DNA from: Candidatus Avelusimicrobium gallicola
GTDB lineage: Bacteria; Elusimicrobiota; Elusimicrobia; Elusimicrobiales; UBA9959
Direction: 5' to 3'
Length of the DNA: 64,000 nt
NCBI GenBank assembly: GCA_020722185.1
Contig: DYLH01000005.1
Coordinates: forward strand, 269 to 64,268
A program made the translations under genes and the position numbers. Shown here in pieces: positions 23,540-48,898 of the stretch (its first letter is position 1; each line of letters starts with the position of its first letter). The notes beneath the pieces were generated by a model, which was not told the DNA's origin, ran no database searches, and saw only the letters and a program-made list of their open reading frames with translations.

Positions 23540-23568
23540 CCAAAAGACGCATGGGATGCCCCCATGCG
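23540..23568 (-). terminator. Candidate intrinsic terminator ending the long polysaccharide operon
   Basis: 8-bp GC-rich stem CGCATGGG (23548-23555) / CCCATGCG (23561-23568) with a 5-nt loop. On the minus strand it is followed by GTCTTTTGG. Lies ~90 nt after the wbqC-like stop. Confidence 0.4.
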
Positions 23569-23658
23569 CCAGATCCAGAAGAAAAATAAAGGGAAGAAGA
23601 ATTTTTACTATAGAGACCATAGAAATGATAATAAAAATAGAAAACTCATAAGCACTTT

Positions 23659-29623: not shown

Positions 29624-30993
29624 TTTCTATTGTAATAAAAAAATTCTATTTCTCCAGACCTAAAGTAATGATCTAATTTTAACTTTTTTTCTATTTCCCT
29701 TTGGTATAAAAAAGATTTTTTATCATAGTCGTGGGAACATATATAGAGAAGTTTATCAGACTTTATATCTAGATCTTCTGGATTTAAATCACTTTTTATA
29801 GCGAGAAAATCACCCTTATAGTAAAATGAGAAAGGGTATTTCATTGCCTCTTTAAAAACAACAATTTTAAAACCGCTATCAGAAGCCTCTTTTGCATAAA
29901 TGGACGCTTCCTTCCAATTCTCCTTATTGTATGCTATATCAAAAAGGAAAGCGGCCATATTAAATAATATAAGAATAAAAATTAAAATTCTGGGAATTTT
30001 TTTAGCGCTTAAATAGATCCCTCGAGCAAATCCTGCCACAAATATTGGGTATACGCATATAAGATATTTAGGTGAATAGAGAACTTTTGGAATCTTAAGT
30101 GAAACTAAAAAAGAACAGAGGAAAGCAAATAAAAAGGTTGTAAACAGTATTTTTTCCCTGTATTCACTTTTTGATAAAAGCCCTTTAAGAAAAAGGAATA
30201 TAGGGAAAAAAGCTGTCAAAGCAAAGATTATTAATTTCCATCCTCTTATTGAATTGTATGGAAAAAATTCCTGCGAAAAAGCAAAAGAATAAAATAGATA
30301 CGGCAGAAAAGCTCCAGATGAAAATTTAAGGGATGTAATAAATCTGGATTTAAGCGATGAAGGAGAGAAAAAATAAAATGCAGTTATAGAAAAAATAAAT
30401 ATCAGAGCAAATGAATAAAGATAATATTTTACAGGAGAATCGCTTTTTTTGAAAAATAGCAGAAAAGCCACAAAAAGTCCAAAAGTCAGAGAAAGCGATG
30501 GATAGAAATTATGTGAATTTAAAATGGAAAAAAGGCAGAAAAAAATAAAATTTTGAATACGTTTATTTTCAAATGTATTAAGAAAAAAATAAATTTCTGC
30601 GGAAGAGAAAAAAAGAGTAAAAGCATGCATCCTAGATATTGATCCCTCTTTTATGACAAAATAAGAAAAAGCAGATATAGCGACAGGGATAATTGAGATT
30701 TTAGATATTTTTTTTATAAAAAACAGAGATAAAAATCCGGCTATAGCAAAAATCCATCTCACTCCAAATTCACTTGCGCCTATATCAAAAAATTTATGAA
30801 TAATATGCACCATAGCAGGAGCTGTGCTATCTAATTTAACTTCGGCAAATATTTCAGCAAAACTTTTTTTTGAGAGAGTAAAGCTCCATGCTTCATCCAA
30901 AGTTAATGGATAAAAATAGGAAAAAGCAAATCTTAAAGCAAGACCCAAAAAAATAATAATAAAAATTTTTTTATCTTCACTTATTTCTTTCAT
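29620..30993 (-). CDS. Polytopic membrane glycosyltransferase, GT-C fold (ArnT/PMT_2-like)
   Basis: More than 10 hydrophobic helices. First-loop YPLTLDEAWSF (DE motif) and GASEFGVRWIFAIAG are typical of ArnT/GT39/GT83-like enzymes. Start moved to ATG 30993 (M52), reducing a 170-nt overlap to 17 nt. Confidence 0.55.
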   Translation of the reverse strand: MKEISEDKKIFIIIFLGLALRFAFSYFYPLTLDEAWSFTLSKKSFAEIFAEVKLDSTAPAMVHIIHKFFDIGASEFGVRWIFAIAGFLSLFFIKKISKISIIPVAISAFSYFVIKEGSISRMHAFTLFFSSAEIYFFLNTFENKRIQNFIFFCLFSILNSHNFYPSLSLTFGLFVAFLLFFKKSDSPVKYYLYSFALIFIFSITAFYFFSPSSLKSRFITSLKFSSGAFLPYLFYSFAFSQEFFPYNSIRGWKLIIFALTAFFPIFLFLKGLLSKSEYREKILFTTFLFAFLCSFLVSLKIPKVLYSPKYLICVYPIFVAGFARGIYLSAKKIPRILIFILILFNMAAFLFDIAYNKENWKEASIYAKEASDSGFKIVVFKEAMKYPFSFYYKGDFLAIKSDLNPEDLDIKSDKLLYICSHDYDKKSFLYQREIEKKLKLDHYFRSGEIEFFYYNRK

Positions 30994-32017
30994 AAATAGA
31001 CGATAAAACCCTGGCATGACTGTCCCAGGAATAATGTTCTGCCTTCCTAGATATTTCATCCTTAAATTTTCTTTCTTCAACCATGCAAGCCATGTCCATG
31101 GCCTTAGATAGAGAATAAATATCTTGAGGATTAAATGATATACCACAGCCCGATAATTCAGCCTCCAATGTTGGCAAACTGGAATAAATCACAGGTTTTC
31201 CCATAGAAATAGCAAATGACACAAGTCCAGAATTGAATATTTCTCTATATGGAAGAACAAGAAAATCTGAAGCGGCCCAGTAAATGGATGTTTCCTCCCT
31301 TGAAACATACTCACAGTGAAATAAAAAGTTTTTAAGACCATTTAATTTGTTTTTTATACTCTTTTCAGTCTCATCATCACATCTCCCTGCTATTATGAGA
31401 AATTTGCCAAAAGGATTTAACAAAAAAGCATCTATCAATATATCCACTCCTTTATATGGCCTTATATTGCCATAGAATAGAAAAACCTTTTCTTTCTCGG
31501 CTATGCCAATTGTTTTTTTTGCCTGATCATATGAAATTTTTTTTTCATAAAGACTTGCGTATCCGCCTTGTGGCGCAATAAAAGTTTTTCCTTTAACTTT
31601 TTCACCGTAAAATTCAATAAGTTTTTCCTTTTGGGCGTGTGAATGAACTATAAGAGAATTTGAAAGGCGAATGACTATTTTATTTACAAAAAATTCAAAT
31701 TTTTCCTGGTATCTTTCATGATTGATGAGATTGTGAACTGTCCACACTATTTTTATACCTGTAAGTCTCAATAAAACAAGCTCAAAAATAAAATGAATGG
31801 ATTTAAGAAAACTTAAAAATATAGAGGAGGAAAAAACATAAGTTCCAGTCCAGTGAAGATGAAGGGCTTTAGCTTGATATTTTGCGCATGATCTCATCAA
31901 TGGAAATAAGGATTTGCGTAAAGCAGAAAAAGTTTCAATATTTAGCTTATTCAAACTAAATTTAAGCAAATATTGATAATCATTATCTCCAAAATCTGGA
32001 GCGAAAACTACTCTCAT
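30977..32017 (-). CDS. Glycosyltransferase, GT-B fold (GT4-like)
   Basis: FLFYGNIRPYKGVDILIDAF ... NSGLVSFAISMGKPVIYS pattern. Start at MRVVFAPDF (32017) gives an ATGA overlap with the GT2 gene. Confidence 0.6.
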   Translation of the reverse strand: MRVVFAPDFGDNDYQYLLKFSLNKLNIETFSALRKSLFPLMRSCAKYQAKALHLHWTGTYVFSSSIFLSFLKSIHFIFELVLLRLTGIKIVWTVHNLINHERYQEKFEFFVNKIVIRLSNSLIVHSHAQKEKLIEFYGEKVKGKTFIAPQGGYASLYEKKISYDQAKKTIGIAEKEKVFLFYGNIRPYKGVDILIDAFLLNPFGKFLIIAGRCDDETEKSIKNKLNGLKNFLFHCEYVSREETSIYWAASDFLVLPYREIFNSGLVSFAISMGKPVIYSSLPTLEAELSGCGISFNPQDIYSLSKAMDMACMVEERKFKDEISRKAEHYSWDSHARVLSSIYERNK

Positions 32018-35241: not shown

Positions 35242-36796
35242 AGCAAAAAACTCTCATCAGTCTAATGACAAGTATTTTATTTTTTTCAAAAAATCTCTTA
35301 TCAATCAAATCAAATGGTTTTAGCAAATAAATAATAGACAGATACACGAACAGATAAAGAGCAAACAATTCTGACAATATTAATACTAATTCAAACTTAG
35401 TATACGAATATTTAAAATGAGAAGCCGCCAGATATGTAAAGATAAAAGCTATAAATCCCGACAGAAAAAAAGATAATATCTTTTTGAAAAACAATTTATT
35501 GTCCAATTTAATCAAAGGATGAAGCATGTTCATAAAATATAAAACTGCTACAGTCATTGGGATAGCTGTGCCGACGGCCGCGCCAGAAAAACCAAAAAGA
35601 TATATAAAGAAAAAGCTCAAAAAAATATTCAAAATCATATTCAAAACAGCGCCTTTCATTTGCAAATCAGGCCTGCCTATGCCCTGTGAAACTGCCCCGC
35701 TGACAGCGCCGAATACAGTATTAAACATATATCCCCATCCCATTATAGTAACAATCCTAACAGATTCAGGATAGTTTGAACCAAGCCAAAATTTTATAAT
35801 CAGAGATGGAGAGGCTGAGACAAAACCAAGTAATAAAACTGTTATAAAAGCAAGATATTTAACAGATCTGAAATAGATTTCGCTTAATTCGGTGTGCTTT
35901 TCCACCGCTTTAAGTCTTGAAAACACCGGGAAAAGAGCTCCCACTATTAAAGTTGGGATATTTCTTGTCTGTTCACATAGAGAATTTCCTATTTGATAAA
36001 AACCCACATATGAAAGTCCGACAAGACGCGTTATTATTATTTTTTCAAGATGAGAGGCGATAATTGAAGAAAGCCTTGTAATCTGCAATTTCCCCCCATA
36101 ACTAAATATCAAATAAAAAATCTCTCTATCAAAATAGAAAATTCTTATTTTAAGATACGGCAAAAGTTTAAAAGATATATAGAGATAAATTAATCCACTC
36201 AAAATCACAATCAAAAGACTGTTTAGCATAAGGCCATATAAACCAAAGCCTCTATCTAGAAAAAAAATAGATCCAAACAAATTAAGAATAGAGAAAAGAA
36301 TGGACAATGATGACACTAAATCAAAACGCTCTATAGCTGGAATAATAGCTTGAAAGGGAGAAAACAAACCAGAAAAAGAAAGTATAGATCCATAAATCAT
36401 AAGAATTAAAAAAGCTTCTTTTTTGAAATTGTCAGGTAATTTCAAAAAATCGATAATATGCTCTCCTCCAAAGAAAAAAAGAGAAAATATTAAAACACCA
36501 AAGAGAAAATAAAATGAGATTCCACATCCAATAATCTTGTTTATCTTTTCATTTTGGTTTAAAGCTTTATATTCAGAAATATATTTAACAAAAGAAGTCC
36601 CGACTCCAAGGTCTAAAAGAGAAAAATATCCTCCAGCAGCAGTTATTAGAGCATAAATTCCATATTTTTCAATGCCAATTTTCTTTATTATGTAGTAAGT
36701 CAAAAAAAGTCCGACTAGAGAAGAGAATAATTTTCCGCCAGCATTCCACATTGTATTTCTAAATATGGATGGCCTTGTATATTCAATTTCTCCCAT
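35222..36796 (-). CDS. wzx: Oligosaccharide-unit flippase (Wzx, MOP superfamily)
   Basis: 524 aa, ~14 hydrophobic helices. The N-terminal NTMWNAGGKLFSSLVGLFLTYYIIKKIG pattern is typical of polysaccharide flippases. Confidence 0.7.
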   Translation of the reverse strand: MGEIEYTRPSIFRNTMWNAGGKLFSSLVGLFLTYYIIKKIGIEKYGIYALITAAGGYFSLLDLGVGTSFVKYISEYKALNQNEKINKIIGCGISFYFLFGVLIFSLFFFGGEHIIDFLKLPDNFKKEAFLILMIYGSILSFSGLFSPFQAIIPAIERFDLVSSLSILFSILNLFGSIFFLDRGFGLYGLMLNSLLIVILSGLIYLYISFKLLPYLKIRIFYFDREIFYLIFSYGGKLQITRLSSIIASHLEKIIITRLVGLSYVGFYQIGNSLCEQTRNIPTLIVGALFPVFSRLKAVEKHTELSEIYFRSVKYLAFITVLLLGFVSASPSLIIKFWLGSNYPESVRIVTIMGWGYMFNTVFGAVSGAVSQGIGRPDLQMKGAVLNMILNIFLSFFFIYLFGFSGAAVGTAIPMTVAVLYFMNMLHPLIKLDNKLFFKKILSFFLSGFIAFIFTYLAASHFKYSYTKFELVLILSELFALYLFVYLSIIYLLKPFDLIDKRFFEKNKILVIRLMRVFCYDKKYT

Positions 36797-38165
36797 CTTT
36801 ATTTACTCCCTCTATGCGTGAATAGGCAAGGCTGGCAAGAGCTGTAAGAAACCAAAAAGGCTCCATTATCCTGACTATTATGAAAGTATTTACACCCAAT
36901 CCCTGAACCAATAGCCCCGGCAAAGCGCATAAAAGCCCCAAACCTATCACTTTCTCAATTTCATTAGCAGAATTTTTATAGATAAAATAAAAAACTTTTA
37001 AAAGAGAGTACATTAACCATATAAAGCCAGCAAGACCTATCAATCCTATTTCTCCCATAACTAAGGCATACTGATTATCCCCAAGCCCTATTCCTGTAAC
37101 ACCCATACCAAGAGCTGGGTGTTTAGGTAAAACATTGTTTATTACATTTATCAAGGATTGATATCTAAGCCATGCAGATTCCTCAAGTTTTATCTCGCCA
37201 AAGGGCGTATTTACAGATTTTATAGCTTCATCCCCTGAGAAAGTGCTTTTTATCCTATTTTCCACTTTTTCACTGGTGCCAGGCAAAGTTAAAGCAAGAA
37301 TAAAGCCTAATAGTGCGGCTAAAATAAAAAAAATTCTTTTTTTACTCGATAAAAAAATGAATACAGTAAAAGAGACAATCAAACCTAGATAAGAAGCTCT
37401 GGAGAATGTCAAAAGGAAAGAGTTATACATTAAAATCATAGTGATAATAGACAACAAAAACATCCATCCAAAGTATTGCGATGACAAAGCTAAAAGAATG
37501 GAGTAAGCAATTATGTAATAACCACCCAGAGAGGCTGGTTCCGATTCTTCTGGCGAATCAAGGGGAGCCTCAAATGGAGCGCTTGCCCTTATATCCTGGC
37601 CAACTGCATTATAGTAATAGTAGTATGAGTACACTATGACTGCTATCAAGACTATCCATGCGTATTTCAAATATCTGGAAAAATCTTTTTCATCCTTCAA
37701 CACATTCAAAGTCATAAAATAAAGAATATAGTACTCTATGTATTTAAGCAGATAAAAAAATGCCTTCTTATACTCTATATTTCCTCTAAAAACGCCAAAG
37801 GATGTGGATATGATATACACTAAAGTATAAAACAAAAGAGGCTTCGTTATTGGGCTATATGCCAGTGACCCTTCTTTTTTAAAGATAGCCATCCTTGCAA
37901 GCCAGGCAAAAAATATCATTATTAAAAATACATCATCGTACCTTATAACCACATTTCTTCCAGGAACTCCACCCACAGCGATCTCAGGAGAGAGAAGCAT
38001 TGAAAAAACCAATAATATAAGGCTTGATTTTATGGAGAAAAAAGCGAAAAAAGCTGATATGACACCTATCAATCCCGCTAAAAGCAAATGCAAAGAAAAG
38101 TTGACTACAATCCATCCAGAAAAAACAGCTATAAGTACTAAAGCAATGATAATGATTATAGGCAT
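36783..38165 (-). CDS. O-antigen ligase/polymerase-like membrane protein (Wzy_C family)
   Basis: 460 aa, polytopic, with a large loop after TFSRASYLGLIVS (Wzy_C-like motif). Positioned between wzx and wzc. Confidence 0.6.
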   Translation of the reverse strand: MPIIIIIALVLIAVFSGWIVVNFSLHLLLAGLIGVISAFFAFFSIKSSLILLVFSMLLSPEIAVGGVPGRNVVIRYDDVFLIMIFFAWLARMAIFKKEGSLAYSPITKPLLFYTLVYIISTSFGVFRGNIEYKKAFFYLLKYIEYYILYFMTLNVLKDEKDFSRYLKYAWIVLIAVIVYSYYYYYNAVGQDIRASAPFEAPLDSPEESEPASLGGYYIIAYSILLALSSQYFGWMFLLSIITMILMYNSFLLTFSRASYLGLIVSFTVFIFLSSKKRIFFILAALLGFILALTLPGTSEKVENRIKSTFSGDEAIKSVNTPFGEIKLEESAWLRYQSLINVINNVLPKHPALGMGVTGIGLGDNQYALVMGEIGLIGLAGFIWLMYSLLKVFYFIYKNSANEIEKVIGLGLLCALPGLLVQGLGVNTFIIVRIMEPFWFLTALASLAYSRIEGVNKDGRN

Positions 38166-40037
38166 TTATCGCCCTGAATATCTGGAATAGTCGTAACTGT
38201 AATATCCATATTTTGGGCCCATTTCAGAAGCCCTCACGCCATTTAGCACAACTCCTATCATTTTTGCTTCAACACCGTTTATCTGATCTTTTGCTCTCTT
38301 CAGAGCTCCGCGAGCTATTTTACCAGCTTTATAAACGAGAACCGCTCCATCATTTTTTTTAGCAAGTATAACGGAATCTATAAAGAGAAGAACAGGAGGC
38401 GCATCAAAAACCACTATATCAAATTCAGATTTTGCAAAAGATATAAATTTCTCCCAGTCAGCATTGTCTAAGAGATCAACCACATTTGCTGGCGTTGTTC
38501 CACAGGAAATTATCTTAAGATTTTCTATACCCTGAAATCTTATCACCTGAGAGGAGTCAAGCCCTCCGGTAATAAAATCTGCGCTTTCTCTTAAAGTTTC
38601 TCTATAATCCACTTTCCCCACTAGGAGATCGCTTAATCCGGGCTGTTTTGGCAAACCGAATACCTGATGTATCACAGGCCTTCGCATATCAGCGTCTATA
38701 AGCAAAGTTTTAAGTCCAGAATGAGCGCTGGCCAGAGCGAAATTTATCGCCGTTAAAGTCTTTCCTTCCGCAGCTCCAGAAGAACTAATAACAACCGAAA
38801 CAGAGCCTTTTTGTGATATATTGGATATAATATTGGCGCGCAAGGTATGATAAGACTCTATGATGCTACTTGAATATTTTCTATTGAACAGCAAAACACT
38901 TCTAAATGCGTCTAGGCCAAAACGTTCTTTCCTGAATATTTCAGTGAGCATATTGTCTATTCTGTGTTCACTAGCTATGTTTGGTATTATTCCTAGCACC
39001 GGCAGATTTATAAAGTTCTCTATTTCCTCTATAGTGCTGATGGAAACATCTAAATTTTCAAGCAAGAAAACAAAAACCACAGATAAGAAAGCGCCAAGCA
39101 AAATTCCTACGGTTAAATTGAGCCTTTTATTTGGAGAGACAGGGACTGTATTGGGAAAAGACGGGTTTACCACGCTTACAAAGGATACAATAGAAGAAAG
39201 CCCAAGCTTAGCCTCCTCGTACTGCTTGCTTATCGTGGCATAAAGGTCTTCCTGAAGTCTTAGATCCCTTGTTATTCTGGCTAGGTCTAATTCCTGAGCC
39301 GGAATCTGAGATAATCTATTCTGCATATTCTCTATTCTTTTTTCTATAGAGTTTATTTCGGGATGGTTTGGGGTATATTTTTCCAGAAGTTCTTTTCTTT
39401 TTATTTCAAGTTCGGCAAGCTGATCTGCATAATAACCACCTATGCCAGTTTTTGGATTTTTCTCTATAAAATTTTTCTTTCGTTTTTCCAGTTCCTTAAG
39501 TTTTTCCTCTATATCATTTTTTCTAGAAACAATATCTTCAAGGGTCTTTCTTGCCTGAGCGCTTTTCTGCTCTAAATCATATTCTCTATACGCATTAATA
39601 ACAGCGTTGATTATATCATTGGCTTTGTAAGGATTGTCAGTTTTTGATGTTATTTTTATCAAGTTTGAATCCTGCACCCTTTCAGCATAATAAGACCCAA
39701 GAACCTCACTGGCCGACAATCTTATTGAAGAATTACTTTCTTGCATCTTGAGATTTATTATTCCAGCCGCTCGAGAAGCTATTTCCATTGAGCCTATAAC
39801 TCTTATCTCAGTTGAAACAGCTCCCCAAGGATCAATTGAAGATATATCTGATCCAGGAAGTTTTGAATAGATATTGGGCGGTTGAGTGTTTATAATGGCA
39901 GAAGAGCTGTATATAGTAGGCTGAAATCTGGTGTATATAAGCGTTGAAACTATTGTAGATACAAAAACTAAAAGCGCAGTCCACTTTCTCCTGTTTATTA
40001 TTCGCCAGTAATCATGAAGTGTAAGTTCGGTATTCAT
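38166..40037 (-). CDS. wzc: Polysaccharide co-polymerase / BY-tyrosine kinase (Wzc-like, PCP-2a)
   Basis: N-terminal Wzz domain (TLHDYWRIINRRKW plus TM). Periplasmic coiled coil and a second TM. Walker A SSSGAAEGKT, Walker B IVVFDAPPV. Tyr-rich tail YGYYSYDYSRYSGR. Confidence 0.8.
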   Translation of the reverse strand: MNTELTLHDYWRIINRRKWTALLVFVSTIVSTLIYTRFQPTIYSSSAIINTQPPNIYSKLPGSDISSIDPWGAVSTEIRVIGSMEIASRAAGIINLKMQESNSSIRLSASEVLGSYYAERVQDSNLIKITSKTDNPYKANDIINAVINAYREYDLEQKSAQARKTLEDIVSRKNDIEEKLKELEKRKKNFIEKNPKTGIGGYYADQLAELEIKRKELLEKYTPNHPEINSIEKRIENMQNRLSQIPAQELDLARITRDLRLQEDLYATISKQYEEAKLGLSSIVSFVSVVNPSFPNTVPVSPNKRLNLTVGILLGAFLSVVFVFLLENLDVSISTIEEIENFINLPVLGIIPNIASEHRIDNMLTEIFRKERFGLDAFRSVLLFNRKYSSSIIESYHTLRANIISNISQKGSVSVVISSSGAAEGKTLTAINFALASAHSGLKTLLIDADMRRPVIHQVFGLPKQPGLSDLLVGKVDYRETLRESADFITGGLDSSQVIRFQGIENLKIISCGTTPANVVDLLDNADWEKFISFAKSEFDIVVFDAPPVLLFIDSVILAKKNDGAVLVYKAGKIARGALKRAKDQINGVEAKMIGVVLNGVRASEMGPKYGYYSYDYSRYSGR

Positions 40038-40038
40038 A

Positions 40039-40716
40039 CTACCTTCTAATCAACACAATTCCGAATGTAAAAAGCATAGTCCATGGCATAAGGTTATCCG
40101 TTATCCATTTCCCAGCTGAGGTGAATTTCTTTCTTGGGATGTAAACTATATCTCCAGGCGAAAGTTCTATGTTTTTCTCAGTATTACCCTTAAACAATTC
40201 ACTTAGATCAATCTCAAAAGAAGATTTAATTGTTTCTCCCTTTTCATTCTTCTTATTTCTAAAAATTCTAATATTCTCAGTATCGGGATAATCAGAAAAT
40301 CCTCTGGCGCTAGATATCAGATCAAGAATTCGCATTCCTTCGTAGTAGTCATAATATCCTCCCCATTGAACTTGACCTATAACACCTACTTTATAAGTGG
40401 AAAATTTTCTCACACTGACAGTTACTTTTGGTTCTGAAACATATTTTGAAAATTTAGATGTAAGAATTTTTTCAAGTTCAGAAGCCCTAATTCCAGAGAC
40501 CTTTATAGCGCCAAGTAATGGCAATTCTATACTGCCATCTGGTTGAACAGTAACCTCCTTGGAAAATTCATCAGCGGGATACACATTTATATCCACAATA
40601 TCTCCAGCTGAGATGAAATAATCTTTTTCACCTAAAGAGGGGATTTCAAATGAGTAAACTGGAAAACCTGACAAATTGATGGCAAAAGATATCAAAAAAG
40701 CAAACATTTTTCTCAT
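40039..40716 (-). CDS. wza: Outer-membrane polysaccharide export protein (Wza/OPX-like, short form)
   Basis: Signal peptide present. Poly_export motif ISAGDIVDINVY...VQPDGSIELPLLGAIKVSG. SLBB-like LSPGDIVYIP. C-terminal hydrophobic helix. Confidence 0.75.
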   Translation of the reverse strand: MRKMFAFLISFAINLSGFPVYSFEIPSLGEKDYFISAGDIVDINVYPADEFSKEVTVQPDGSIELPLLGAIKVSGIRASELEKILTSKFSKYVSEPKVTVSVRKFSTYKVGVIGQVQWGGYYDYYEGMRILDLISSARGFSDYPDTENIRIFRNKKNEKGETIKSSFEIDLSELFKGNTEKNIELSPGDIVYIPRKKFTSAGKWITDNLMPWTMLFTFGIVLIRR

Positions 40717-40748
40717 AAAAGATCTCCCTAATGGCTTTCGAATATAAA

Positions 40749-41309
40749 TTATATACTTTTACCAGCGGCTCTGGAAAGAGTTTTTACTATTGCTTTAAGC
40801 TCCGCAACCTTATCTTCAAGCTCTTTTATTTTTCTATCATCAAAAGAAACTGAAGAATTAGAAAATGTTGAAACCTTCCTTTCAAGCTCAGAAATCTTGT
40901 ATATCAAATCATCATTTCTGCGCTGAGCATAAGAAGCAAATACTATATAACGAAAAAATGCCATAAATGACACTAGAGAAAAAAGCATAAAAGAAACTCC
41001 ACCAACCATGCTTATATACTCTCTATCCGAAAAAATTCCTATCAAAAGAACTATTATCGATGCAAGCATTCCAAAAAGCAGGGCTTCTTTATTTTCACTC
41101 CAAAGAATATTGAATTTAGGATTTATTGGACGATCAGATAATGGTCGCTGATGAGAAGGCAGCGGAATATTTTGCGGCATTTGAATATTCCCTCTAACCG
41201 CAAGAGAATGTGGCTGAGATGGTTTTTCTATATCTTCCTCTGTGTGATAAAAAGACGTTTCAACCTTTAACTTTTCAAGCATTGATCTTAGATCTTCATT
41301 TTTTTTCAT
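40749..41309 (-). CDS. Hypothetical membrane anchor: P/Q-rich N-terminus, two TM helices, C-terminal coiled coil
   Basis: Hydrophobic helices LLFGMLASIIVLLIGIF and VGGVSFMLFSLVSFMAFFRYIVF, then ISELERKV...KELEDKVAELKAIVKTL. No recognisable family. Confidence 0.5.
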   Translation of the reverse strand: MKKNEDLRSMLEKLKVETSFYHTEEDIEKPSQPHSLAVRGNIQMPQNIPLPSHQRPLSDRPINPKFNILWSENKEALLFGMLASIIVLLIGIFSDREYISMVGGVSFMLFSLVSFMAFFRYIVFASYAQRRNDDLIYKISELERKVSTFSNSSVSFDDRKIKELEDKVAELKAIVKTLSRAAGKSI

Positions 41310-42030
41310 CTTTATTCTCCGACATTTTTGAAAATGAGTATTTTCTCTCCCAGTCGGCTATCTTTTCTTGTTTTCTTATGATTTCTTTTTCTCTATTTTC
41401 TAAATCTAACCTTACCTTTTCAAAAGTTCTTATCAAGTCCTTTTTCTTATTTATAAAATCTTCACTAAGAATTTTCTCTTTTGTTTTTAATTCTGCCATC
41501 TTTCTTGAATAATCTTTTTCCATAGCCAAATGCCTGTTTTCCAACTCTCTGTTTTTCTCTTCCCATTTTTTCAACATAGCATCTTCTTTAATCCTGATTT
41601 CCTCGTAGAGTGACTGCGCCCTAGAAGAATATTCCATTGTCAATTTGGTCTTCTCCAGAGCCACTTCAGCCTTTATTTCTGCCTTTTCTGCCTCAAGCTT
41701 TTTTACAGCCTCTTTTAAATCCCTCAATTCATCATAAGTTTTTACATTTTCCTCAGATAGTTTGTTGTTTATTTCTTTAAGTTTTAATAGTTTCAATTCA
41801 AACTCGGATTCTATTTCCTTTTTTTCTTCTTTAAGGGCTTCCAATCTTTTTTTGAAATCCTCTGTAGTTTTTCCAGCAAGATCCTCATAGGAAATAATTT
41901 CATCTTCAAATTCTTCAAGTATGGTAGACAACTCCACAGAAGAAGGATTTTTATACTGCCAGAGTTTTTCAGCAAATTCTTTAAGTCTTGCTAAAAAGGA
42001 TGAGGGGACGCATTTAAGTTCTTTTTTCAT
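41296..42030 (-). CDS. Hypothetical coiled-coil protein (244 aa)
   Basis: E/K-rich heptad-like sequence after a ~60-aa N-terminal region. 2 nt downstream of the giant gene; 14-nt overlap with the next gene. Confidence 0.5.
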   Translation of the reverse strand: MKKELKCVPSSFLARLKEFAEKLWQYKNPSSVELSTILEEFEDEIISYEDLAGKTTEDFKKRLEALKEEKKEIESEFELKLLKLKEINNKLSEENVKTYDELRDLKEAVKKLEAEKAEIKAEVALEKTKLTMEYSSRAQSLYEEIRIKEDAMLKKWEEKNRELENRHLAMEKDYSRKMAELKTKEKILSEDFINKKKDLIRTFEKVRLDLENREKEIIRKQEKIADWERKYSFSKMSENKDEKK

Positions 42031-42032
42031 AT

Positions 42033-45000
42033 TTACCTGGCCTTATTTTTATATTCAGCAATAGTCCTTGTAAGTTCAAGACGCAAATTCTCTATTTCAG
42101 ACTGACGCTTGGCATATTCTCTTTCAAGATCCAATCTTCTGGTCTCAAGCTCTCTTTCTCTCTTTTCAAACTCTTCAGCTTTCCTTGCGTTTTCCTTATC
42201 AATCTCAGTTAATTTTTCTTGAAGTTTTACTTCCATTTCATTCAAGCGAGACTGCTTCAATGAAAGCATAGAGTCTTTTGCCGACATATTCTTTTCCATT
42301 TCTTCAATGGTCTGCTGCATCTGTGCTACCCTCTTATTGTACAATTCTTTAAGGGAGTTATTTTCCTGGATAAACTTTTCTTCCATAGCAGCCTGCTCTG
42401 CTCTGTAAGAGGCGAGAGTTTCTGAAAATCTCTTTTCCTCTTGCGCCAAATGTTGCGCAAGCATAGAAGAATAGTTGTCTCTGTATTTAGATATTTCCTC
42501 TTTAAGTTTTTCCATTTTCTCTTCAGCTTCTTTCATAGCAGCATCCTTTTCAGCTAAAACACTAAGCATTCTTTCCTTATCTGCTTTGTAACTTTCTCTC
42601 ATCTTTTCTATTTCATACACGCTTCTTTCATTAAGCTCTACTAATTCTCTTTGGGTGATATCCAACTTTTCTTCAAGCATAGCAGTCGCTCTTGAAACGG
42701 CTTCTGCCAATCTTTTATTAAAATCCTTTGACATTGAATCTACAATTTGAGCTTTTTCCTGAGAGAATTCTTTCGCCATTTCAACAGCTTCCTGTGTCAG
42801 TTGAGATTCTCTTTCTTTTGATTGTATCAATTCGGCGCTTAAAGCCGATATTCTCTCTTTTAGAGAAGACGATTCCTTTCTTAAAGAATCTTCTTTCATA
42901 CTAAATTCTGATTTTATATCTTCTATCTGAGACTTCATAGAATTTTCCAAATCAGCTTTGGCTTTTTTATACTTTTCTGCATATATCTCAGCTTGTTTTC
43001 GAGAAACTTCATTTTGGAAAGATTCCATTTTTTCATCCATTTCCCTTTGAAAAGCAGAAAGTCTCTCAGAAAGAGATTTTATTTCTTCATCTTTTGAATT
43101 AAGTATTCTGAAACTCTGGCTCAATTCCTCCTCATAGGCTAGGATCTTATTATTAAGAGATTCAGTTTCTGCTTTGACCTGTTTTTCTATCCTTTGAGAA
43201 AATTCCGACTCCATTTCAGCTTTCTGCTGAGCAAGAAGTCTTCTTGAATTTATTTCCAGATCCGCAAGTTTGCTGGATAAATCTTTGTTCTCTTCAATAG
43301 CGCTGGCTAGTTTTTCTTTTACTTGACCTAATTCAAAAACAGCCGCATCTGCTATTTTTTCAAGATGCTCTTTTTCTTTACCCCAATTAATTCTTTCCTT
43401 ATCATACACTTCCTTATGCATTTCAAGATTTTGCTGATATTCCTGCTCATATTGTTTTTTTATATCTTCAATTTTAGACTTCGATTCTTCTCTAATCTCT
43501 CTTATAGAAACTTCATTTTCCTGTTTGTATTTTTCAGAAATTTTCCTTAATCTGAAATCAAAATCTTTTTCCCTTGACAAAATTTCACTGCGAAGCCTTT
43601 CTATTTCTTCATTTAGGCTATTTGTTTCTTTAACCCTGAGAACTCTCTCTTTTTCCTTTTCAGATTTAAGCTCATCCATCTCTTTTTTCATCTGAGAATA
43701 AAAAAGATTCTTTTCTTCCTGAATTTCTTTTTTTCTATTTTCAAATTCAAGAGATATTAGCCTTATTTTTTCAGCATAATCTTGAGACAATGAATTTCTT
43801 AAAGAATTTTCACTCTCTCTATGTTTTACTTCAAGAGATTCAATAGCCTCACGGAACTCAATATCTTTATCTGTAAGTTTTTTCTCATAGTCTTTTATAA
43901 TATCCTCATATTTTTTTTCTATTTGAGCTTTTTCCTCTTCAAGAGATAAAGCTCTGGCCTGATATTCCTGCTCCCTTTGAGAAATTTGTTGTCTGAGATG
44001 ATCCGATATTGCGGCTTTTTCTTGTGAAAATTTCACAAACAAATCTGATATCTTGCTCTCATATTCAGAAACCATTTTTTCATACTTATCTTTTTCTTCT
44101 TTGAGAGCCACTTCATCTTTTTGTTTAAGTTCAGAAATCAATTTTTCATATTCAGATTTGAGTTTCTCGGAATTCTTCTCAAAATCTTTCGTAAGAGAAA
44201 GGATTATTTCCTCTTTATCTTTTAAGAGAGCTGATAGAGTAGCATCTTTTTGCGCTATCTCATTATCAAAAGATTTTGAAATTTCTTTTCTTTTAGTTCT
44301 TTCATTTTCAAGCAAAATCATCATTTCATTTTCATACTTTGACTTTGCTTCTTCATAAGTGGCTTTTAAATTAGCTACCTTTTCCTCAAAACGTTTTCTC
44401 AAATTCTCCATTTCTTTATTGTGCCTTTCTTCTATTTCTTTTTCACGCTCATTAAAATTTGCCATTAGTTGATTTTTTAATTCTTCTTTTTCCGCTGAGA
44501 CTAATTTAAGCTTTTCATTTATTTTGTTTAACTTTTCCTCGTAATCTGCCTCAATAGCAGTTTTCTCTTCTTCATATTTCATCAAAATATCGTCTTTCTC
44601 AGCAGAAGCTTTTAGCAAAACATCTCCCATAGCTTGCCAAAAAGATTGTCTCATTTCTTCTTTTTGTTGAGAAATTTTTTCAATTTCTTTTTCCCATTTA
44701 AGAGCGCTTTCCTGATTTTCTTTTCTAAGGTTTATGATGGCTTCATCTTTTTCTTTACTAATACTTGATATCTTAGACTCATAAAAAGATATCCTCTCGC
44801 TGATTTTATCTTCTAAAGATTTTTTCTCTATTTCCATTTGATTTTTTAAGTTCTCAATGGAATTTTTCAAATCGGTTCTCTCTTTGTCAAATTCTGACTC
44901 TTTTATGGATAAAGTCTCCTGCCATTGACTATTTGTCTTTTCAATCTTTTCTCTAAGCTCTTTTTCTTTTTTATTAAGCAATTCTTCAAGCTCTTTTATC

Positions 45001-48000
45001 TTTTCACTTCTTGCCACCAGCTCCCCGGAATATTTCTTTTCGTATTCACTTCTAAGGCTTAGATTCTCACCTATAAACCTCTCTTCCATCTCTTTCTTCT
45101 CAGCTTCAAAGCGAGATTTTATCTCTTTTATCTTATCGCTATTTACCGCCTCTTTTTGCTCAAGTTCTAAAATTAATTGCTTTTCCCTCTTCTCATATTC
45201 AGCTTTTATATCTTGTATCTGACTCGCAAATTCGCTTCTGGCCTTCTCTAGTTCTAGCGAATATTCCTTCTCTTTCTTAGCTATATCTTCAGACAGCTTT
45301 CTTACTTCAACCTCTTTGCCTAAAATAGCATTCTCATAATCCGCCTTAATCAATGAAAAAGAATTCTTAAGCTCTTCATTCGCTGACAAAAGCTCACTCT
45401 CCCTATGTGAAAACTCTTTCCTTAAATCCCCTAAGGCTTTTTCACGCTCGGCTATAAAGCGGCTCTCTGTCCTAGAAAGAAGTTCTTGCATCTCTCCAAT
45501 CCTTTTTTGCGCATTCTCTATCCTTGCAATATATGTCGCGGCTATTGAAGCTTTTTCTTCTTCGTTTTCACTTCTCACCGCGGACAGCTGTTCAAGATAA
45601 TAATCCTCTTTGGCTTTAAGCGCTGACTCCATATCTTCTCGATACTTCTGCGATAACTCATTCTTCTCTTTGATCAGCTCATTCTTTAATTCCTCTATCT
45701 TGTCTTCATATTCTTTATTTAATAAACCTATCTTCTCAATAAGAGAATTTTTCTCTGTTTCTATCTTCTCTTTATTTTCCTCTATCTTTTTTAACTTTAT
45801 CTCAAAATTCTTCTCTTTTTCCTCAAGCGCCTGGGACATCTTCTGCTCAAATTCTGACTCTTTTATGGATAAAGTCTCCTGCCATTGACTATTTGTCTTT
45901 TCAATCTTTTCTCTAAGCTCTTTTTCTTTTTTATTAAGCAATTCTTCAAGCTCTTTTATCTTTTCACTTCTTGCCACCAGCTCCCCGGAATATTTCTTTT
46001 CGTATTCACTTCTAAGGCTTAGATTCTCACCTATAAACCTCTCTTCCATCTCTTTCTTCTCAGCTTCAAAGCGAGATTTTATCTCTTTTATCTTATCGCT
46101 ATTTACCGCCTCTTTTTGCTCAAGTTCTAAAATTAATTGCTTTTCCCTCTTCTCATATTCAGCTTTTATATCTTGTATCTGACTCGCAAATTCGCTTCTG
46201 GCCTTCTCTAGTTCTAGCGAATATTCCTTCTCTTTCTTAGCTATATCTTCAGACAGCTTTCTTACTTCAACCTCTTTGCCTAAAATAGCATTCTCATAAT
46301 CCGCCTTAATCAATGAAAAAGAATTCTTAAGCTCTTCATTCGCTGACAAAAGCTCACTCTCCCTATGTGAAAACTCTTTCCTTAAATCCCCTAAGGCTTT
46401 TTCACGCTCGGCTATAAAGCGGCTCTCTGTCCTAGAAAGAAGTTCTTGCATCTCTCCAATCCTTTTTTGCGCATTCTCTATCCTTGCAATATATGTCGCG
46501 GCTATTGAAGCTTTTTCTTCTTCGTTTTCACTTCTCACCGCGGACAGCTGTTCAAGATAATAATCCTCTTTGGCTTTAAGCGCTGACTCCATATCTTCTC
46601 GATACTTCTGCGATAACTCATTCTTCTCTTTGATCAGCTCATTCTTTAATTCCTCTATCTTGTCTTCATATTCTTTATTTAATAAACCTATCTTCTCAAT
46701 AAGAGAATTTTTCTCTGTTTCTATCTTCTCTTTATTTTCCTCTATCTTTTTTAACTTTATCTCAAAATTCTTCTCTTTTTCCTCAAGCGCCTGGGACATC
46801 TTCTGCTCAAATTCTGACTCTTTTATGCGCAGTCTTTCATTTAACTCAAATATCTCATTTTGTTTAGCTAAAATCTCTTCCTCAAATTTTTTTGAAAGAT
46901 TTTCAATCCTTTGCTGATATGACTTTTCGCTCTCTACACGCATATCTTCCATAGCTTTTTGAGAAGATTCAATGCTTTTCTGATATTCCTTAAGCAATCT
47001 TTCTTTTTCCTGAGCATACTTCATTTCTATTTCATGAAGAGTCTCTCTGAGTTTTTCATTTTCTTGATTGAGTCTGCTTCTTTCTGCCTCAAAGGCACTT
47101 TTGTCGCTTATAAATTTTTGCTCTGTTTCACTGATTTTTAATATCAGCTCCTCGTCAAATCTTTTTTTGATTTCTATTATCTTATTTTCAAGATTTTTTA
47201 TCTGTTCTTGAGCCTGCCAGTATTTTTCAGCCATTTCTTTTGCGCTTTCTTCAAGTCTTGCTCTCTCTTTATCCCATGCCATATGCAAAGACTTTATTTC
47301 TTTTTTTCTCTCTTCCTCTATAGACATAAGCCTATTGTTCATATTAAAAGCAAGACTCTCTTTATACTTCTCATAAGCCTGAGAGACTTCTTCTTTTTTT
47401 GCTATGTACTCAGCTTCCAAAGCCGCCTGTCTATTTTTTATCCATTCTTCTTTCTCTTTTGCAGAATTTTCCAGAAAATTTACTCTCTCCATAAGCTCTT
47501 TTTCTCTATCTGAGTATGAAGCCTGAAGAGATGAAATTCTCTTATCATAGGATCTCTGAAGCTCAATATTCAGCTCATCATATTTTTTCTGAGCTTCTGC
47601 AAGTTTTTGTGAGTACTGGCTTTCAGTTTCAAGCAGACGCCTATTCCAGTTTTCAACCATATTTTTTTGAGATTTATCCAGCTCTTCAAATTTTTTCTGA
47701 TAGTCATTCTCAAGCTCGCGTCTGAGTATATCTATTCTGGCCTCTTTTTCAATAAGTTGTCTCACATCCAGTTTGCCCTCTCCAAGCAACTGCATTGTGG
47801 CTTCAAGTTTCCTGTAAAATTCTTCCTTATCTTCAACAGTTTTTATCCTTGCGGAAAATGAATCGCGGATATTTTCAAGTTTTGCGGATAACTCTTTATT
47901 TGAATTTTCAGCTATTTCAAGATTTTTTCTCAATTCAGAGCCTTCTTTTTCCATTCCTGAAATCTTTTCCAAAGCCCAACGCAAGGTCATTTTTGCTGTA

Positions 48001-48053
48001 TCGAGACTTGAAACCTCGCTTATGAGATTCTCTATTTCATTCTTTTCTTTCAT
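42033..48053 (-). CDS. Giant coiled-coil protein (2006 aa), no enzymatic or membrane motif recognised
   Basis: One uninterrupted ORF. E/K/L/I/S-dominated heptad-like sequence end to end. No signal peptide, TM helix or Walker A. GGAG 8 nt upstream of the ATG. Contains a 320-aa exact internal duplication. Confidence 0.7.
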   Translation of the reverse strand: MKEKNEIENLISEVSSLDTAKMTLRWALEKISGMEKEGSELRKNLEIAENSNKELSAKLENIRDSFSARIKTVEDKEEFYRKLEATMQLLGEGKLDVRQLIEKEARIDILRRELENDYQKKFEELDKSQKNMVENWNRRLLETESQYSQKLAEAQKKYDELNIELQRSYDKRISSLQASYSDREKELMERVNFLENSAKEKEEWIKNRQAALEAEYIAKKEEVSQAYEKYKESLAFNMNNRLMSIEEERKKEIKSLHMAWDKERARLEESAKEMAEKYWQAQEQIKNLENKIIEIKKRFDEELILKISETEQKFISDKSAFEAERSRLNQENEKLRETLHEIEMKYAQEKERLLKEYQKSIESSQKAMEDMRVESEKSYQQRIENLSKKFEEEILAKQNEIFELNERLRIKESEFEQKMSQALEEKEKNFEIKLKKIEENKEKIETEKNSLIEKIGLLNKEYEDKIEELKNELIKEKNELSQKYREDMESALKAKEDYYLEQLSAVRSENEEEKASIAATYIARIENAQKRIGEMQELLSRTESRFIAEREKALGDLRKEFSHRESELLSANEELKNSFSLIKADYENAILGKEVEVRKLSEDIAKKEKEYSLELEKARSEFASQIQDIKAEYEKREKQLILELEQKEAVNSDKIKEIKSRFEAEKKEMEERFIGENLSLRSEYEKKYSGELVARSEKIKELEELLNKKEKELREKIEKTNSQWQETLSIKESEFEQKMSQALEEKEKNFEIKLKKIEENKEKIETEKNSLIEKIGLLNKEYEDKIEELKNELIKEKNELSQKYREDMESALKAKEDYYLEQLSAVRSENEEEKASIAATYIARIENAQKRIGEMQELLSRTESRFIAEREKALGDLRKEFSHRESELLSANEELKNSFSLIKADYENAILGKEVEVRKLSEDIAKKEKEYSLELEKARSEFASQIQDIKAEYEKREKQLILELEQKEAVNSDKIKEIKSRFEAEKKEMEERFIGENLSLRSEYEKKYSGELVARSEKIKELEELLNKKEKELREKIEKTNSQWQETLSIKESEFDKERTDLKNSIENLKNQMEIEKKSLEDKISERISFYESKISSISKEKDEAIINLRKENQESALKWEKEIEKISQQKEEMRQSFWQAMGDVLLKASAEKDDILMKYEEEKTAIEADYEEKLNKINEKLKLVSAEKEELKNQLMANFNEREKEIEERHNKEMENLRKRFEEKVANLKATYEEAKSKYENEMMILLENERTKRKEISKSFDNEIAQKDATLSALLKDKEEIILSLTKDFEKNSEKLKSEYEKLISELKQKDEVALKEEKDKYEKMVSEYESKISDLFVKFSQEKAAISDHLRQQISQREQEYQARALSLEEEKAQIEKKYEDIIKDYEKKLTDKDIEFREAIESLEVKHRESENSLRNSLSQDYAEKIRLISLEFENRKKEIQEEKNLFYSQMKKEMDELKSEKEKERVLRVKETNSLNEEIERLRSEILSREKDFDFRLRKISEKYKQENEVSIREIREESKSKIEDIKKQYEQEYQQNLEMHKEVYDKERINWGKEKEHLEKIADAAVFELGQVKEKLASAIEENKDLSSKLADLEINSRRLLAQQKAEMESEFSQRIEKQVKAETESLNNKILAYEEELSQSFRILNSKDEEIKSLSERLSAFQREMDEKMESFQNEVSRKQAEIYAEKYKKAKADLENSMKSQIEDIKSEFSMKEDSLRKESSSLKERISALSAELIQSKERESQLTQEAVEMAKEFSQEKAQIVDSMSKDFNKRLAEAVSRATAMLEEKLDITQRELVELNERSVYEIEKMRESYKADKERMLSVLAEKDAAMKEAEEKMEKLKEEISKYRDNYSSMLAQHLAQEEKRFSETLASYRAEQAAMEEKFIQENNSLKELYNKRVAQMQQTIEEMEKNMSAKDSMLSLKQSRLNEMEVKLQEKLTEIDKENARKAEEFEKRERELETRRLDLEREYAKRQSEIENLRLELTRTIAEYKNKAR
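44887..46827. repeat. Perfect tandem duplication, 960-bp unit, 2.02 copies, in frame
   Basis: Line-by-line comparison shows every base from 44887-45867 is identical to 45847-46827 (offset 960). The 21-nt TCAAATTCTGACTCTTTTATG occurs at 44887, 45847 and 46807. Confidence 0.95.
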
Positions 48054-48184
48054 AATTTTCTCCGCTTGAAAATATTTCCGCTTTTATTTTCACAATCTTA
48101 TTATAACAGGCCGGTAGTTTTATTTATGTTACATTTTTGTAAAATTTATATTTAGGTAGAACGGTTTTAGTAAAAACTGGCAAT
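48054..48184. promoter_or_regulatory. Divergent promoter region (giant-gene operon versus 138-aa gene)
   Basis: 131-nt AT-rich spacer between divergent starts. On the minus strand a perfect TATAAT lies at 48100-48105, ~45 nt upstream of the giant-gene ATG, with a weak -35. Not validated. Confidence 0.3.
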
Positions 48185-48601
48185 ATGAAGAAGAAAATAC
48201 TTGTATTTCTTGCGATTATAATAATTACAGTTTGTTTCTATAATATGTCTTTCCTTATGTCAAGAATAGTTTCGATTAATCTGGAAGTAAGCATTTCCCC
48301 AGAAATAGCTTCTAAGTATTTTTCTCAAAACAATATGCTGCTCATTATGATAAAAAACTCCAAAGGAGCTCCACTTGGAGTAAAAAAAATAATAGATCCG
48401 ATATACCCCCTCAGAACAAGGATAACAAGCGAAGACATACTCTTAAAGGATCTAATAACTCCCAAACTTGAACTATCTGCTGAAATGAATTCTCACGGTT
48501 TGGCTGGAGAGAGAAAAAAAGGCGATTTTTTTTCCTCTAAAAATGAAAAGACTTTCATAATTTCAACCAACAAAACTATTCAGCTAGACTCTCTCGAGTA
48601 G
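48185..48601 (+). CDS. Hypothetical N-terminally anchored protein
   Basis: N-terminal hydrophobic helix KILVFLAIIIITVCFY. No secure family assignment. Confidence 0.4.
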   Translation: MKKKILVFLAIIIITVCFYNMSFLMSRIVSINLEVSISPEIASKYFSQNNMLLIMIKNSKGAPLGVKKIIDPIYPLRTRITSEDILLKDLITPKLELSAEMNSHGLAGERKKGDFFSSKNEKTFIISTNKTIQLDSLE

Positions 48602-48715
48602 GGGACACTGAAAAAAGTGCCCGCAAATAGGCCTTTAGACCTAATTGATATTATTACCTTTGAAACTTGTGATTTTAAGGCAATTGTGCAAAAATGTTTT
48701 TATAGGGGAGGGGGT

Positions 48716-48898
48716 ATGACCTGGAAAGAAATAAATACAAACTATGAAAAAAATGGCGGAGTTGCTTCTTTAAAAAAAGAAGAGATGACTCGTGTGGGCA
48801 AAAACTGGAAAAAGCTCATGGACTCAACTGACAAACTTTTGTGGCTTTTTATGATTTCTAATGAGCTACAAAAAAGAACAACAAACAAAGAAAACTAA
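48716..48898 (+). CDS. Small hypothetical protein (60 aa)
   Basis: ATG at 48716 is preceded by GGGGAGGGGG. The track ORF begins at GTG 48617 inside a hairpin with no RBS, so the internal start is preferred. Confidence 0.3.
   Translation: MTWKEINTNYEKNGGVASLKKEEMTRVGKNWKKLMDSTDKLLWLFMISNELQKRTTNKEN

Follow-up and report, generated by a model that had tools for sequence, protein, structure and literature searches.

Why should a gene for a coiled-coil protein of 2006 amino acids (aa) stand, with two small partner genes, at the head of a polysaccharide-export operon? The question is raised by a 64,000-nucleotide (nt) stretch of DNA from Candidatus Avelusimicrobium gallicola (contig DYLH01000005.1, positions 269 to 64,268), which we refer to as the window. 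Three consecutive minus-strand open reading frames (ORFs) encode a giant rod protein and two smaller proteins that we call the adaptor and the anchor. The coordinates and junctions given for them in the initial annotation of this DNA, made by a model from the sequence alone, proved correct. The trio and the three genes that follow it are:

42033..48053, minus strand: giant rod protein gene, 2006 aa (ORF)
41296..42030, minus strand: adaptor gene, 244 aa (ORF)
40749..41309, minus strand: anchor gene, 186 aa (ORF)
40039..40716, minus strand: Wza-like outer-membrane polysaccharide export (OPX) protein, first gene past the trio, 225 aa (Poly_export and SLBB domains, Pfam E=4e-22)
38166..40037, minus strand: Wzc-like polysaccharide co-polymerase and bacterial tyrosine kinase (PCP-2a/BY-kinase), 623 aa (Pfam Wzz, GNVR, and AAA_31; Tyr-rich C-terminal tail)
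36783..38165, minus strand: Wzy_C-family polymerase/ligase (Pfam annotation of the identical gene in contig L001)

The rod and adaptor genes are separated by a 2-nt gap, the adaptor and anchor genes overlap by 14 nt, and the spacer between anchor and wza is 32 nt. Beyond the Wzy_C gene lie genes for a Polysacc_synt flippase, methyltransferases, glycosyltransferases, and an asparagine-synthase-like enzyme (all by Pfam). The co-directional run described earlier holds as well, with every gene from the trio to 24595 on the same strand and spacers of at most 37 nt. No terminator-like site was found in a scan between the anchor gene and wza (40717-40748); the promoter-like and terminator-like site counts equal the shuffle expectation and carry no weight.

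We favor the reading that the trio constitutes a membrane-tethered cytoplasmic scaffold that organizes the Wzx/Wzy export machinery in space. The first half of this statement, a membrane-tethered scaffold made up of the three proteins, is likely from the sequence features set out below. The statement as a whole is tentative, and we give it slightly less than an even chance.

The evidence for a scaffold begins with the rod protein. Glu makes up 20.5% and Lys 14% of its 2006 residues, which include 19 Gly, no Pro, and no Cys; hydrophobic residues amount to only ~27% and form a narrow seam. The highest 19-residue Kyte-Doolittle mean is 0.49, which indicates that the protein has neither a transmembrane (TM) helix nor a signal peptide, and it contains no Walker A motif, all in agreement with the initial annotation; Walker A is absent from 13 relatives as well (14 family members searched). 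If it forms one continuous helix, at 0.1485 nm per residue, the rod would be ~298 nm long. Four features can be placed on its gene, none of which the initial annotation had recorded:

47781..48053, minus strand: N-terminal head helix, aa 1-91, heptad-like (AlphaFold2 helix 2-91; signature SLDTA[KR]MTLRWALE)
47766..47780, minus strand: hinge, aa 92-96, within LLGEGKLD (AlphaFold2 break at residues 92-96)
44887..46827, minus strand: exact tandem duplication of a 960-nt (320-aa) unit, 2.02 copies, aa ~409-1056 (base-by-base comparison)
42036..42425, minus strand: conserved C-terminal region, last ~130 aa, ending ...RLDLEREYAKRQSEIENLRLELTRTIAEYKNKAR (alignment of 11 family members, including 473-aa forms)

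Both ends of the protein are conserved. In the AlphaFold2 (AF2) model of the N-terminus, the head helix and hinge are followed by a second helix at residues 97-249, and G91, E92, G93, K94, and L95 are invariant at the hinge in the N-terminal alignment. The full signature, SLDTA[KR]MTLRWALE...EKExFYxKLEATMxLLGEGKLD, is found in every relative, including proteins of 429-476 aa. Between the window protein and its L003 orthologue, identity is 92% over aa 1-150 and ~40-55% elsewhere, and the C-terminal ~130 aa can be aligned across the whole family.

The earlier description of this protein as heptad-like from end to end does not stand. The hydrophobic periodicity is 3.46 only in the head (aa 1-90), and the heads of the 12 long orthologues tested give 3.45-3.47, except that of L019, with a value of 3.40 that is not significant (z 1.8). 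Along the rod, the periodicity is 3.63 throughout (range 3.56-3.67) in the window protein and in 11 orthologues, with z = 8-20 versus shuffles, and in the C-terminal 130 aa it is 3.57-3.58 (12 orthologues). Fourier analysis of hydrophobic positions gave 3.62-3.64 in all 250-aa segments after the first, with powers of 3.3-5.2 versus shuffle maxima of 1.1 +/- 0.3. Autocorrelation is high at lags 7, 11, 18, 29, 40, and 51, of which lag 11 is the strongest, and near zero at lags 21 and 28. Because the former lags are high while the latter vanish, the seam is one of mixed heptads and hendecads and is not heptad-based. A value of 3.63 indicates what would be an essentially unsupercoiled heptad/hendecad bundle, and the rod is probably a parallel dimer or a higher bundle. 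Pro is nearly excluded across the family, with 0-1 residues in rods of up to 2813 aa, except in L027, which has 3.

The same periodicity allows a different interpretation, in which the rod lies along the inner leaflet as a very long amphipathic helix that stabilizes or shapes the membrane, by the 11-mer logic of apolipoproteins, late embryogenesis abundant (LEA) proteins, or synucleins. A value of 3.63 is the periodicity that an undistorted alpha-helix has (PMC9858780). The prominence of lag 11, the presence of a membrane anchor among the partners, and the very high content of charged residues would also suit such a coat. However, the sparse hydrophobic residues and narrow seam are typical of a-d-h hendecad cores, the heptad-like N-terminal 90 aa indicate bundle formation, and a tether or strut is suggested by conserved ends with a freely variable stretch between them. 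The rod also lacks the Pro punctuation seen in apolipoprotein repeats. We consider a membrane coat improbable.

A giant coiled coil encoded with two small subunits could also suggest a chromosome-handling complex of the SMC, MukB, or RecN type. The three-gene layout is superficially mukFEB-like, SMC and Rad50 models give weak sub-threshold matches (E=0.04), and one relative (P0007) carries the Joint Genome Institute label "DNA repair ATPase RecN." The initial annotation had warned that an SMC label would be unsupported, and this judgment holds: Walker A occurs in 0 of 14 family members, Pfam reports neither an SMC_N nor a hinge domain, the NCBIfam SMC and Rad50 scores reach 11-12 bits versus cut-offs of at least 700 bits, and one of the partners is an integral membrane protein. 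This explanation is refuted at the level of sequence, and we attach almost no probability to it.

Comparison of relatives suggests how the rods acquire their length. Among them, rod proteins of 429, 473/476, 729, 790, 1122, 1194, 1253, 1368, 1562, 1708, 1965, 2006, 2251, and 2813 aa occur, which correspond to ~64-418 nm. In the window, positions 44887-45867 are identical to positions 45847-46827 (100%), and the 320-aa unit is present as a single copy in the orthologues of L003 (1708 aa) and L006 (1562 aa). Internal repeats in the family were sought with an offset-identity scan, since BLASTP self-comparison returned the diagonal only. Expressed in turns at 3.63 residues per turn, the duplications are:

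Window: 320 aa, 100% identity, 88.2 turns
L019: 185, 232, and 417 aa, 95-100% identity, 51.0, 63.9, and 114.9 turns
L016: 98 aa, 85% identity, 27.0 turns
L020: 69 aa, 72% identity, 19.0 turns
L012: ~600 aa, 50% identity, 165.3 turns (old, with imprecise bounds)

All of the duplicated units except the L012 repeat fall within 0.2 of a whole number of helical turns. These near-integer values are suggestive of rods that grow by independent in-phase duplications, which would keep the hydrophobic seam continuous, in a sample that is small and in which the three L019 values are not mutually independent. Because such duplications recur in relatives, the 960-nt duplication in the window may well be a genuine and very recent in-phase expansion; alternatively, it is an assembly artefact. 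A near-identical metagenome-assembled genome (MAG), GCA_973314155.1, carries the window's own proteins, and its contig (L001) starts inside the rod gene.

The two small partners have the architectures that the initial annotation had described, a small head followed by a helix in one case and a Pro/Gln-rich N-terminus, two TM helices, and a C-terminal helix in the other. For the adaptor, the AF2 model (predicted local distance difference test score 87) shows a beta-bridge between residues 7-8 and 46-47, helices at 10-25 and 30-42, and then a single helix of ~190 aa (aa 48-240). Its head (aa 1-47) carries the motif CVP..F..RL..F..KLW..KNPSSVELS.I.EEFEDE. In the anchor, hydropathy and alignment agree on a conserved N-terminal helix (MKKNEDL..ML.KLK), a Pro/Gln-rich linker, a TM hairpin, and a C-terminal helix. 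The hairpin is placed as follows:

40935..41084, minus strand: anchor TM hairpin, aa 76-125 (Kyte-Doolittle maxima 2.6 and 2.0)

Its hydrophobic helices span ~aa 76-94 and 98-125 and are joined by a 5-residue loop; the motif WSENKEALLFG...FFRY is conserved. We infer that both termini of the anchor are cytoplasmic, because the loop is so short and the partner proteins lack signal peptides.

That adaptor and anchor work as a pair is supported by a natural fusion. Anchor homologues adjoin an adaptor gene in 15 lineages, and in L025/L026 a single 177-aa protein combines the adaptor head with the anchor's linker and TM hairpin. In this fusion, the match to the adaptor head covers residues 6-67 (39% identity, E=1e-13), and residues 77-176 match aa 3-131 of the anchor, which comprise its N-terminal helix, Pro-rich linker, and TM hairpin (E=4e-10). 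The fusion contains neither the long helix of the adaptor nor the C-terminal helix of the anchor. Because these are the parts dispensed with once the two proteins are covalently joined, these helices would serve in the split system to join adaptor to anchor, and the adaptor head would be the end that meets the rod. The initial annotation had proposed a filament- or ruler-like scaffold tethered to the inner membrane through these two proteins. The tether gains support from the gene overlaps and the L025/L026 fusion, and a ruler of fixed length is hard to reconcile with rods that range from 429 to 2813 aa.

Length plasticity is not confined to the rod. Adaptors also expand by internal repeats, with proteins of 537 aa (L030, 10001-11614), 340 aa (L018, 15-1037), and 332 aa (L029, 4482-5480) compared to the usual ~240 aa, and the adaptor hidden Markov model (HMM) matches repeatedly along all three. 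Paralogy of adaptor and rod was considered and is unproven, as the adaptor HMM gives no match to the giant proteins at E<1e-5 and the L007 pair reaches a BLASTP value of E=0.001 over 69 aa.

Profile searches, which the initial annotation had named as the way to find a characterized family, returned none. Neither the three proteins nor the giant protein's termini matched Pfam, NCBIfam, PHROG, or PADLOC above curated cut-offs, and the low-scoring matches (ANG-1, FAM184, bZIP, SMC, Rad50, and the ZorA tail) are coiled-coil noise. When PDB sequences were searched with a profile of the N-terminal alignment, the best match, at E=0.02, was the SPX domain of XPR1, which we take as noise. Foldseek searches of the PDB with the two AF2 models, long single helices that make poor queries, gave 0 matches and 10 matches, the latter all at E>=6. 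Because no match in these databases reaches cut-off, the three protein families are, as judged by sequence, undescribed. Literature searches on Elusimicrobia coiled-coil proteins and on coiled-coil partners of Wzc likewise found nothing relevant.

The module is also narrowly distributed. Exhaustive HMMER searching of 1.84 billion representatives yielded 39 adaptor proteins at E<=1e-3, 18 of them at E<=1e-10, and more than 20 independent contigs carry orthologous trios or pairs. All homologues whose source is named come from Elusimicrobia/Elusimicrobiota MAGs; one homologue (P0019) is labeled only "MAG: bacterium." From these counts and names, the family is small and lineage-restricted, so far found only in Elusimicrobia. 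Two other searches add little: a genome-collection scan for the anchor used two very strict peptide patterns, found one species, and says little on distribution, and one word-index homology search, overwhelmed by coiled-coil words, gave 6 matches from 8000 candidates.

The case for a role in export comes from gene neighborhoods. Thirty related loci were annotated with HMMs of the three families and with phmmer using the window's neighbor genes, and precomputed Pfam annotation was added in five further cases. Three patterns emerged:

Pattern A, 13 lineages, rod-adaptor-anchor-wza-wzc-wzy on one strand: the window (with L001/L002), L003, L006, L012, L013, L015 (with L031/32), L016, L017, L018, L020, L023, L027, and L029
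Pattern B, L011/L004: next gene NTP_transf_5, no adjacent wza
Pattern B, L019: next gene Methyltransf_24, then a convergent gene; no adjacent wza
Pattern B, L030: no anchor; next gene encodes a WG-repeat protein; no adjacent wza
Pattern B, L025/L026: 729-aa rod and the 177-aa fusion, then NHL-repeat proteins; no adjacent wza
Pattern C, L007/8, L009/10, and L028: a 429-476-aa rod gene overlaps by 4 nt a 252-292-aa adaptor-like gene

The linkage of the trio to wza-wzc-wzy that is seen in the window is thus conserved in 13 lineages. Except in L027 and L029, the genes at the rod/adaptor and adaptor/anchor junctions of pattern A overlap by 4-14 nt or lie at most 15 nt apart. Between anchor and wza, nine lineages have a spacer of 23-38 nt, one has 57 nt, one has 92 nt, and two have 365-412 nt. 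Most pattern A loci also keep an upstream prs-L25-pth block followed by a divergent Ig_CycH-like gene. In a rough neighbor-joining tree of adaptors, whose input is coiled-coil sequence and which calls for caution, pattern B loci lie inside pattern A clades and pattern C forms a separate deep group. The nesting of pattern B points to secondary rearrangement.

Several observations weigh against the organizing-scaffold reading. The module lacks an adjacent wza in seven lineages (patterns B and C), and the pattern C loci have no anchor homologue and no wza within 10 kb. Because rod and adaptor occur together in loci without wza, export is neither the only nor the obligatory context of the module. 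Spacers exceed 90 nt in three lineages (L029, 92 nt; L015 with L031/32, 365-412 nt; L018, 380 nt), leaving room for a separate promoter. In most wza-linked loci, the unrelated prs-L25-pth block is as conserved as the downstream genes, which means that gene order in this clade is generally stable and that part of the synteny signal is simple inheritance. A periodicity of 3.63 fits a surface-lying amphipathic helix as well as a bundle. Finally, the accessible portions of structural papers on the Wza-Wzc complex describe it without such a cytoplasmic partner (PMC12881504, PMC13469938).

These observations bring in the strongest rival, a general cytoskeletal or polarity scaffold acting in cell shape, division-site placement, or wall growth, whose adjacency to wza would reflect inherited gene order and shared envelope regulation. 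The wza-less core pairs in seven lineages are as expected for such a protein, and so are their surroundings. Pattern C neighbors include a divergent yceG/mltG gene, an SLT-LysM gene, or a histidine kinase gene; in L007-L010 the pair stands beside divergent mltG/yceG and an SLT-LysM lytic transglycosylase, and in L028 its position is 4.6 kb upstream of murB, with a gene for an unrelated 343-aa single-TM protein after the adaptor gene. The upstream housekeeping block is as well kept as the downstream exopolysaccharide (EPS) block in most loci, and the architecture resembles that of the Scy polarity scaffold, with a short canonical coiled coil, a hinge, and a rod with a 51/14 = 3.64 periodicity (PMC3718342). 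In contrast, inherited gene order does not readily account for L029, which has Peptidase_M48 genes upstream instead of the pth block and still retains the trio with wza-wzc, or for L027, whose adaptor is only ~25% identical and whose trio still precedes wza-wzc-wzy. The module is followed by wza in 13 of the 15 lineages that have a separate anchor gene and in none of the 5 that lack one, the spacers are mostly short, and no terminator was found. A general scaffold of this kind is a real possibility, if a doubtful one on balance.

We therefore regard the second half of the original proposal, that the scaffold positions the export machine, as half supported by gene context, with 13 wza-linked lineages in its favor and seven lineages without an adjacent wza against it. 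The distribution suggests that the module was ancestrally coupled to the EPS export operon, and an export role is plausible but unproven. Under the organizing-scaffold reading that we favor, the rod would be held under the inner face of the cytoplasmic membrane through adaptor and anchor. Since the operon runs on into wza-wzc-wzy in most lineages, the scaffold would probably be produced along with the machine that assembles and exports polysaccharide in the Wzx/Wzy-dependent pathway, and it would cluster, space, or place that machine, most plausibly via the cytoplasmic kinase ring of Wzc. Elusimicrobia in culture pass 0.2-um filters (PMC7308576), and a rod of 300 nm would thus span the width of a cell.

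A bolder version holds that rod, adaptor, and anchor are a true and previously unknown cytoplasmic accessory of the Wzx/Wzy pathway, docked on the Wzc ring or on Wzy/Wzx, with rods that set where the machines are placed. In this version, the contact with the Wzc kinase ring (or Wzy/Wzx) would be made by the anchor or the adaptor. Straight rods 100-400 nm in length would gather, space, or position the export machines along the tiny cells of Elusimicrobia, and in-phase duplications, by tuning the length of the rods, would determine the geometry of the sites at which polysaccharide is secreted. We consider this stronger claim rather unlikely.

Two features lie upstream of the rod gene:

48100..48108, minus strand: extended -10-like box TGtTATAAT, candidate operon promoter (read directly; 47 nt upstream of the rod gene ATG)
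48185..48601, plus strand: 138-aa protein, hydrophobic helix at its N-terminus, weak Ig_CycH-like match (Pfam E=4e-4, under the curated cut-off)

The TATAAT box and an upstream non-coding block, AAATTTTACAAAAATGTAACATAAATAAAAC, are kept in L003 and L006; the consensus promoter scan did not call the box, which is a candidate only. A second promoter-like arrangement, TTTCCA-18-TATAAT at 40777-40748, was considered as an internal promoter. It overlaps the anchor stop codon, is not kept in L011/L012, and weighs neither way. Rfam and tRNA scans of the window revealed no RNA elements. The Ig_CycH-like gene is a divergent neighbor of the module that is kept in most relatives, and it is probably not part of the system, because Peptidase_M48 takes its place in L029.

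Some further observations concern the surroundings. The Wza-like OPX protein, with Poly_export, a single SLBB domain, and a hydrophobic C-terminus in 225 aa, is far shorter than E. coli Wza; a 2026 paper discusses widespread "Class-3" OPX proteins without an outer-membrane-spanning pore domain (PMC12819527). The same-strand gene run extends past 24595: after a 261-nt gap come a WbqC-like gene (23659-24333, Pfam E=3e-66) and two more minus-strand ORFs, the whole spanning 22049-24333. Amid the glycosyltransferase genes, a 508-aa ORF (29620-31146) has no Pfam match at E<=1e-4; the L001 call of this gene is 465 aa long and has no Pfam entry. Past the Ig_CycH-like gene, a small plus-strand ORF (48617-48898, start probably near 48716) carries the motif MTW.E(I/L)...W+.(L/I)M.STDKL.WLF. 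This motif can also be read in L025 (6916-7149, minus strand) and looks like that of a conserved ~60-aa small protein; gene callers place 56-76-aa genes at this site in related contigs, one with a weak DUF6199 match. In L009/L010, a second adaptor-like paralogue (6639-7538, 299 aa, E=5e-47 to the adaptor HMM) lies upstream of yceG and adjoins an AbiEi/AbiEii toxin-antitoxin pair and a phage-integrase fragment.

If the link to Wza, Wzc, and Wzy is functional, that much-studied export pathway would gain in the trio its first cytoplasmic structural accessory, and export-site positioning would become testable. The family would also offer a case in which rod length evolves over a six-fold range by duplications that hold a hydrophobic seam in phase. 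On the practical side, its recognition corrects likely SMC and RecN mis-annotations and explains why MAG contigs break inside the rod gene.

How does the module compare with known systems? By position, the trio belongs with the genes of the Wza-Wzc complex, with which it shares an operon and a strand. By Pfam, the Wza, Wzc, Wzy, and flippase genes are canonical, and the Poly_export, SLBB, Wzz, GNVR, kinase, Wzy_C, and Polysacc_synt domains are absent from the trio proteins and all present in the next four genes.

Three other comparisons were rejected or gave nothing. Like the tail of ZorA, the window system includes a very long membrane-anchored cytoplasmic coiled coil, and the rod gives a weak PADLOC match (E=1e-4, 18.8 bits). 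This match covers profile positions 438-830 (the tail) only; the rod has no MotA/ExbB domain and no TM helix, there are no ZorB-D neighbors, and the match is best read as compositional. SMC arms folded at a hinge do not fit a protein with no non-helical central domain, so few Gly and Pro residues, and a uniform 3.63 in all rod segments. For PspA/IM30/ESCRT-III, neither the giant N-terminus nor the adaptor matches PF04012 at E<=0.1, and Foldseek gave no PDB match; no profile-profile comparison was made.

Caulobacter TipN combines two N-terminal TM helices with a long cytoplasmic coiled coil and marks a cell site, and anchor plus rod may be functionally similar to it. Unlike TipN, which is one polypeptide, anchor, adaptor, and rod are separate here and partly fused only in L025/L026, and no sequence similarity was found. 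The module likewise resembles crescentin, the Helicobacter Ccrp pairs, and ZicK/ZacK, all cytoplasmic coiled-coil proteins, often from adjacent genes whose products co-assemble, that are lineage-restricted and have no nucleotide-binding domain. These proteins have a few hundred residues and are mostly heptad-based, unlike the window rod. We know of none reported with a TM-hairpin anchor gene or in a Wzx/Wzy operon, and a literature search found nothing relevant. The adjacent Anabaena pair ZicK/ZacK co-assembles into a heteropolymer (bioRxiv 10.1101/553073).

The closest architectural parallel is with Scy and FilP, whose genes are adjacent in Streptomyces. As in that pair, the gene for a giant rod adjoins that for a smaller coiled-coil partner, and the rods differ in length between species. 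In Scy itself, the canonical coiled coil spans 63 aa, the hinge 8 aa, and the rod, which is non-canonical with 51 residues per 14 turns, or 3.64, 1226 aa (PMC3718342). Where Scy has a CC7 domain, a hinge, and a CC51 domain, the window protein has ~90 aa of helix with a periodicity of 3.46, five hinge residues, and a rod whose periodicity is 3.63. This layout recurs in 12 orthologues, in which a 51-residue repeat is not singled out, as lags 18, 29, 40, and 51 are all high. Scy, FilP, DivIVA, and GpsB are united by an N-terminal DivIVA-like motif, RGYDxxEVD, that is followed by a heptad coiled coil (PMC9858780). A regular-expression search found it in 0 of 14 family members, and none had a DivIVA Pfam match at E<=0.1. 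Because neither was detected, and the window system, from a different and diderm phylum, has no detectable homology to Scy or FilP, we consider the likeness to be convergent architecture in an unrelated family. The coiled-coil scaffolds studied so far, such as Scy, FilP, crescentin, and TipN, act in growth and polarity and come almost all from a few model phyla. The module described here would add a sequence-unrelated scaffold family from a barely cultivated phylum, one that appears to have converged on the Scy design and, unlike Scy and FilP, has a globular-headed adaptor, a TM-hairpin anchor, and a position heading a wza-wzc-wzy operon.

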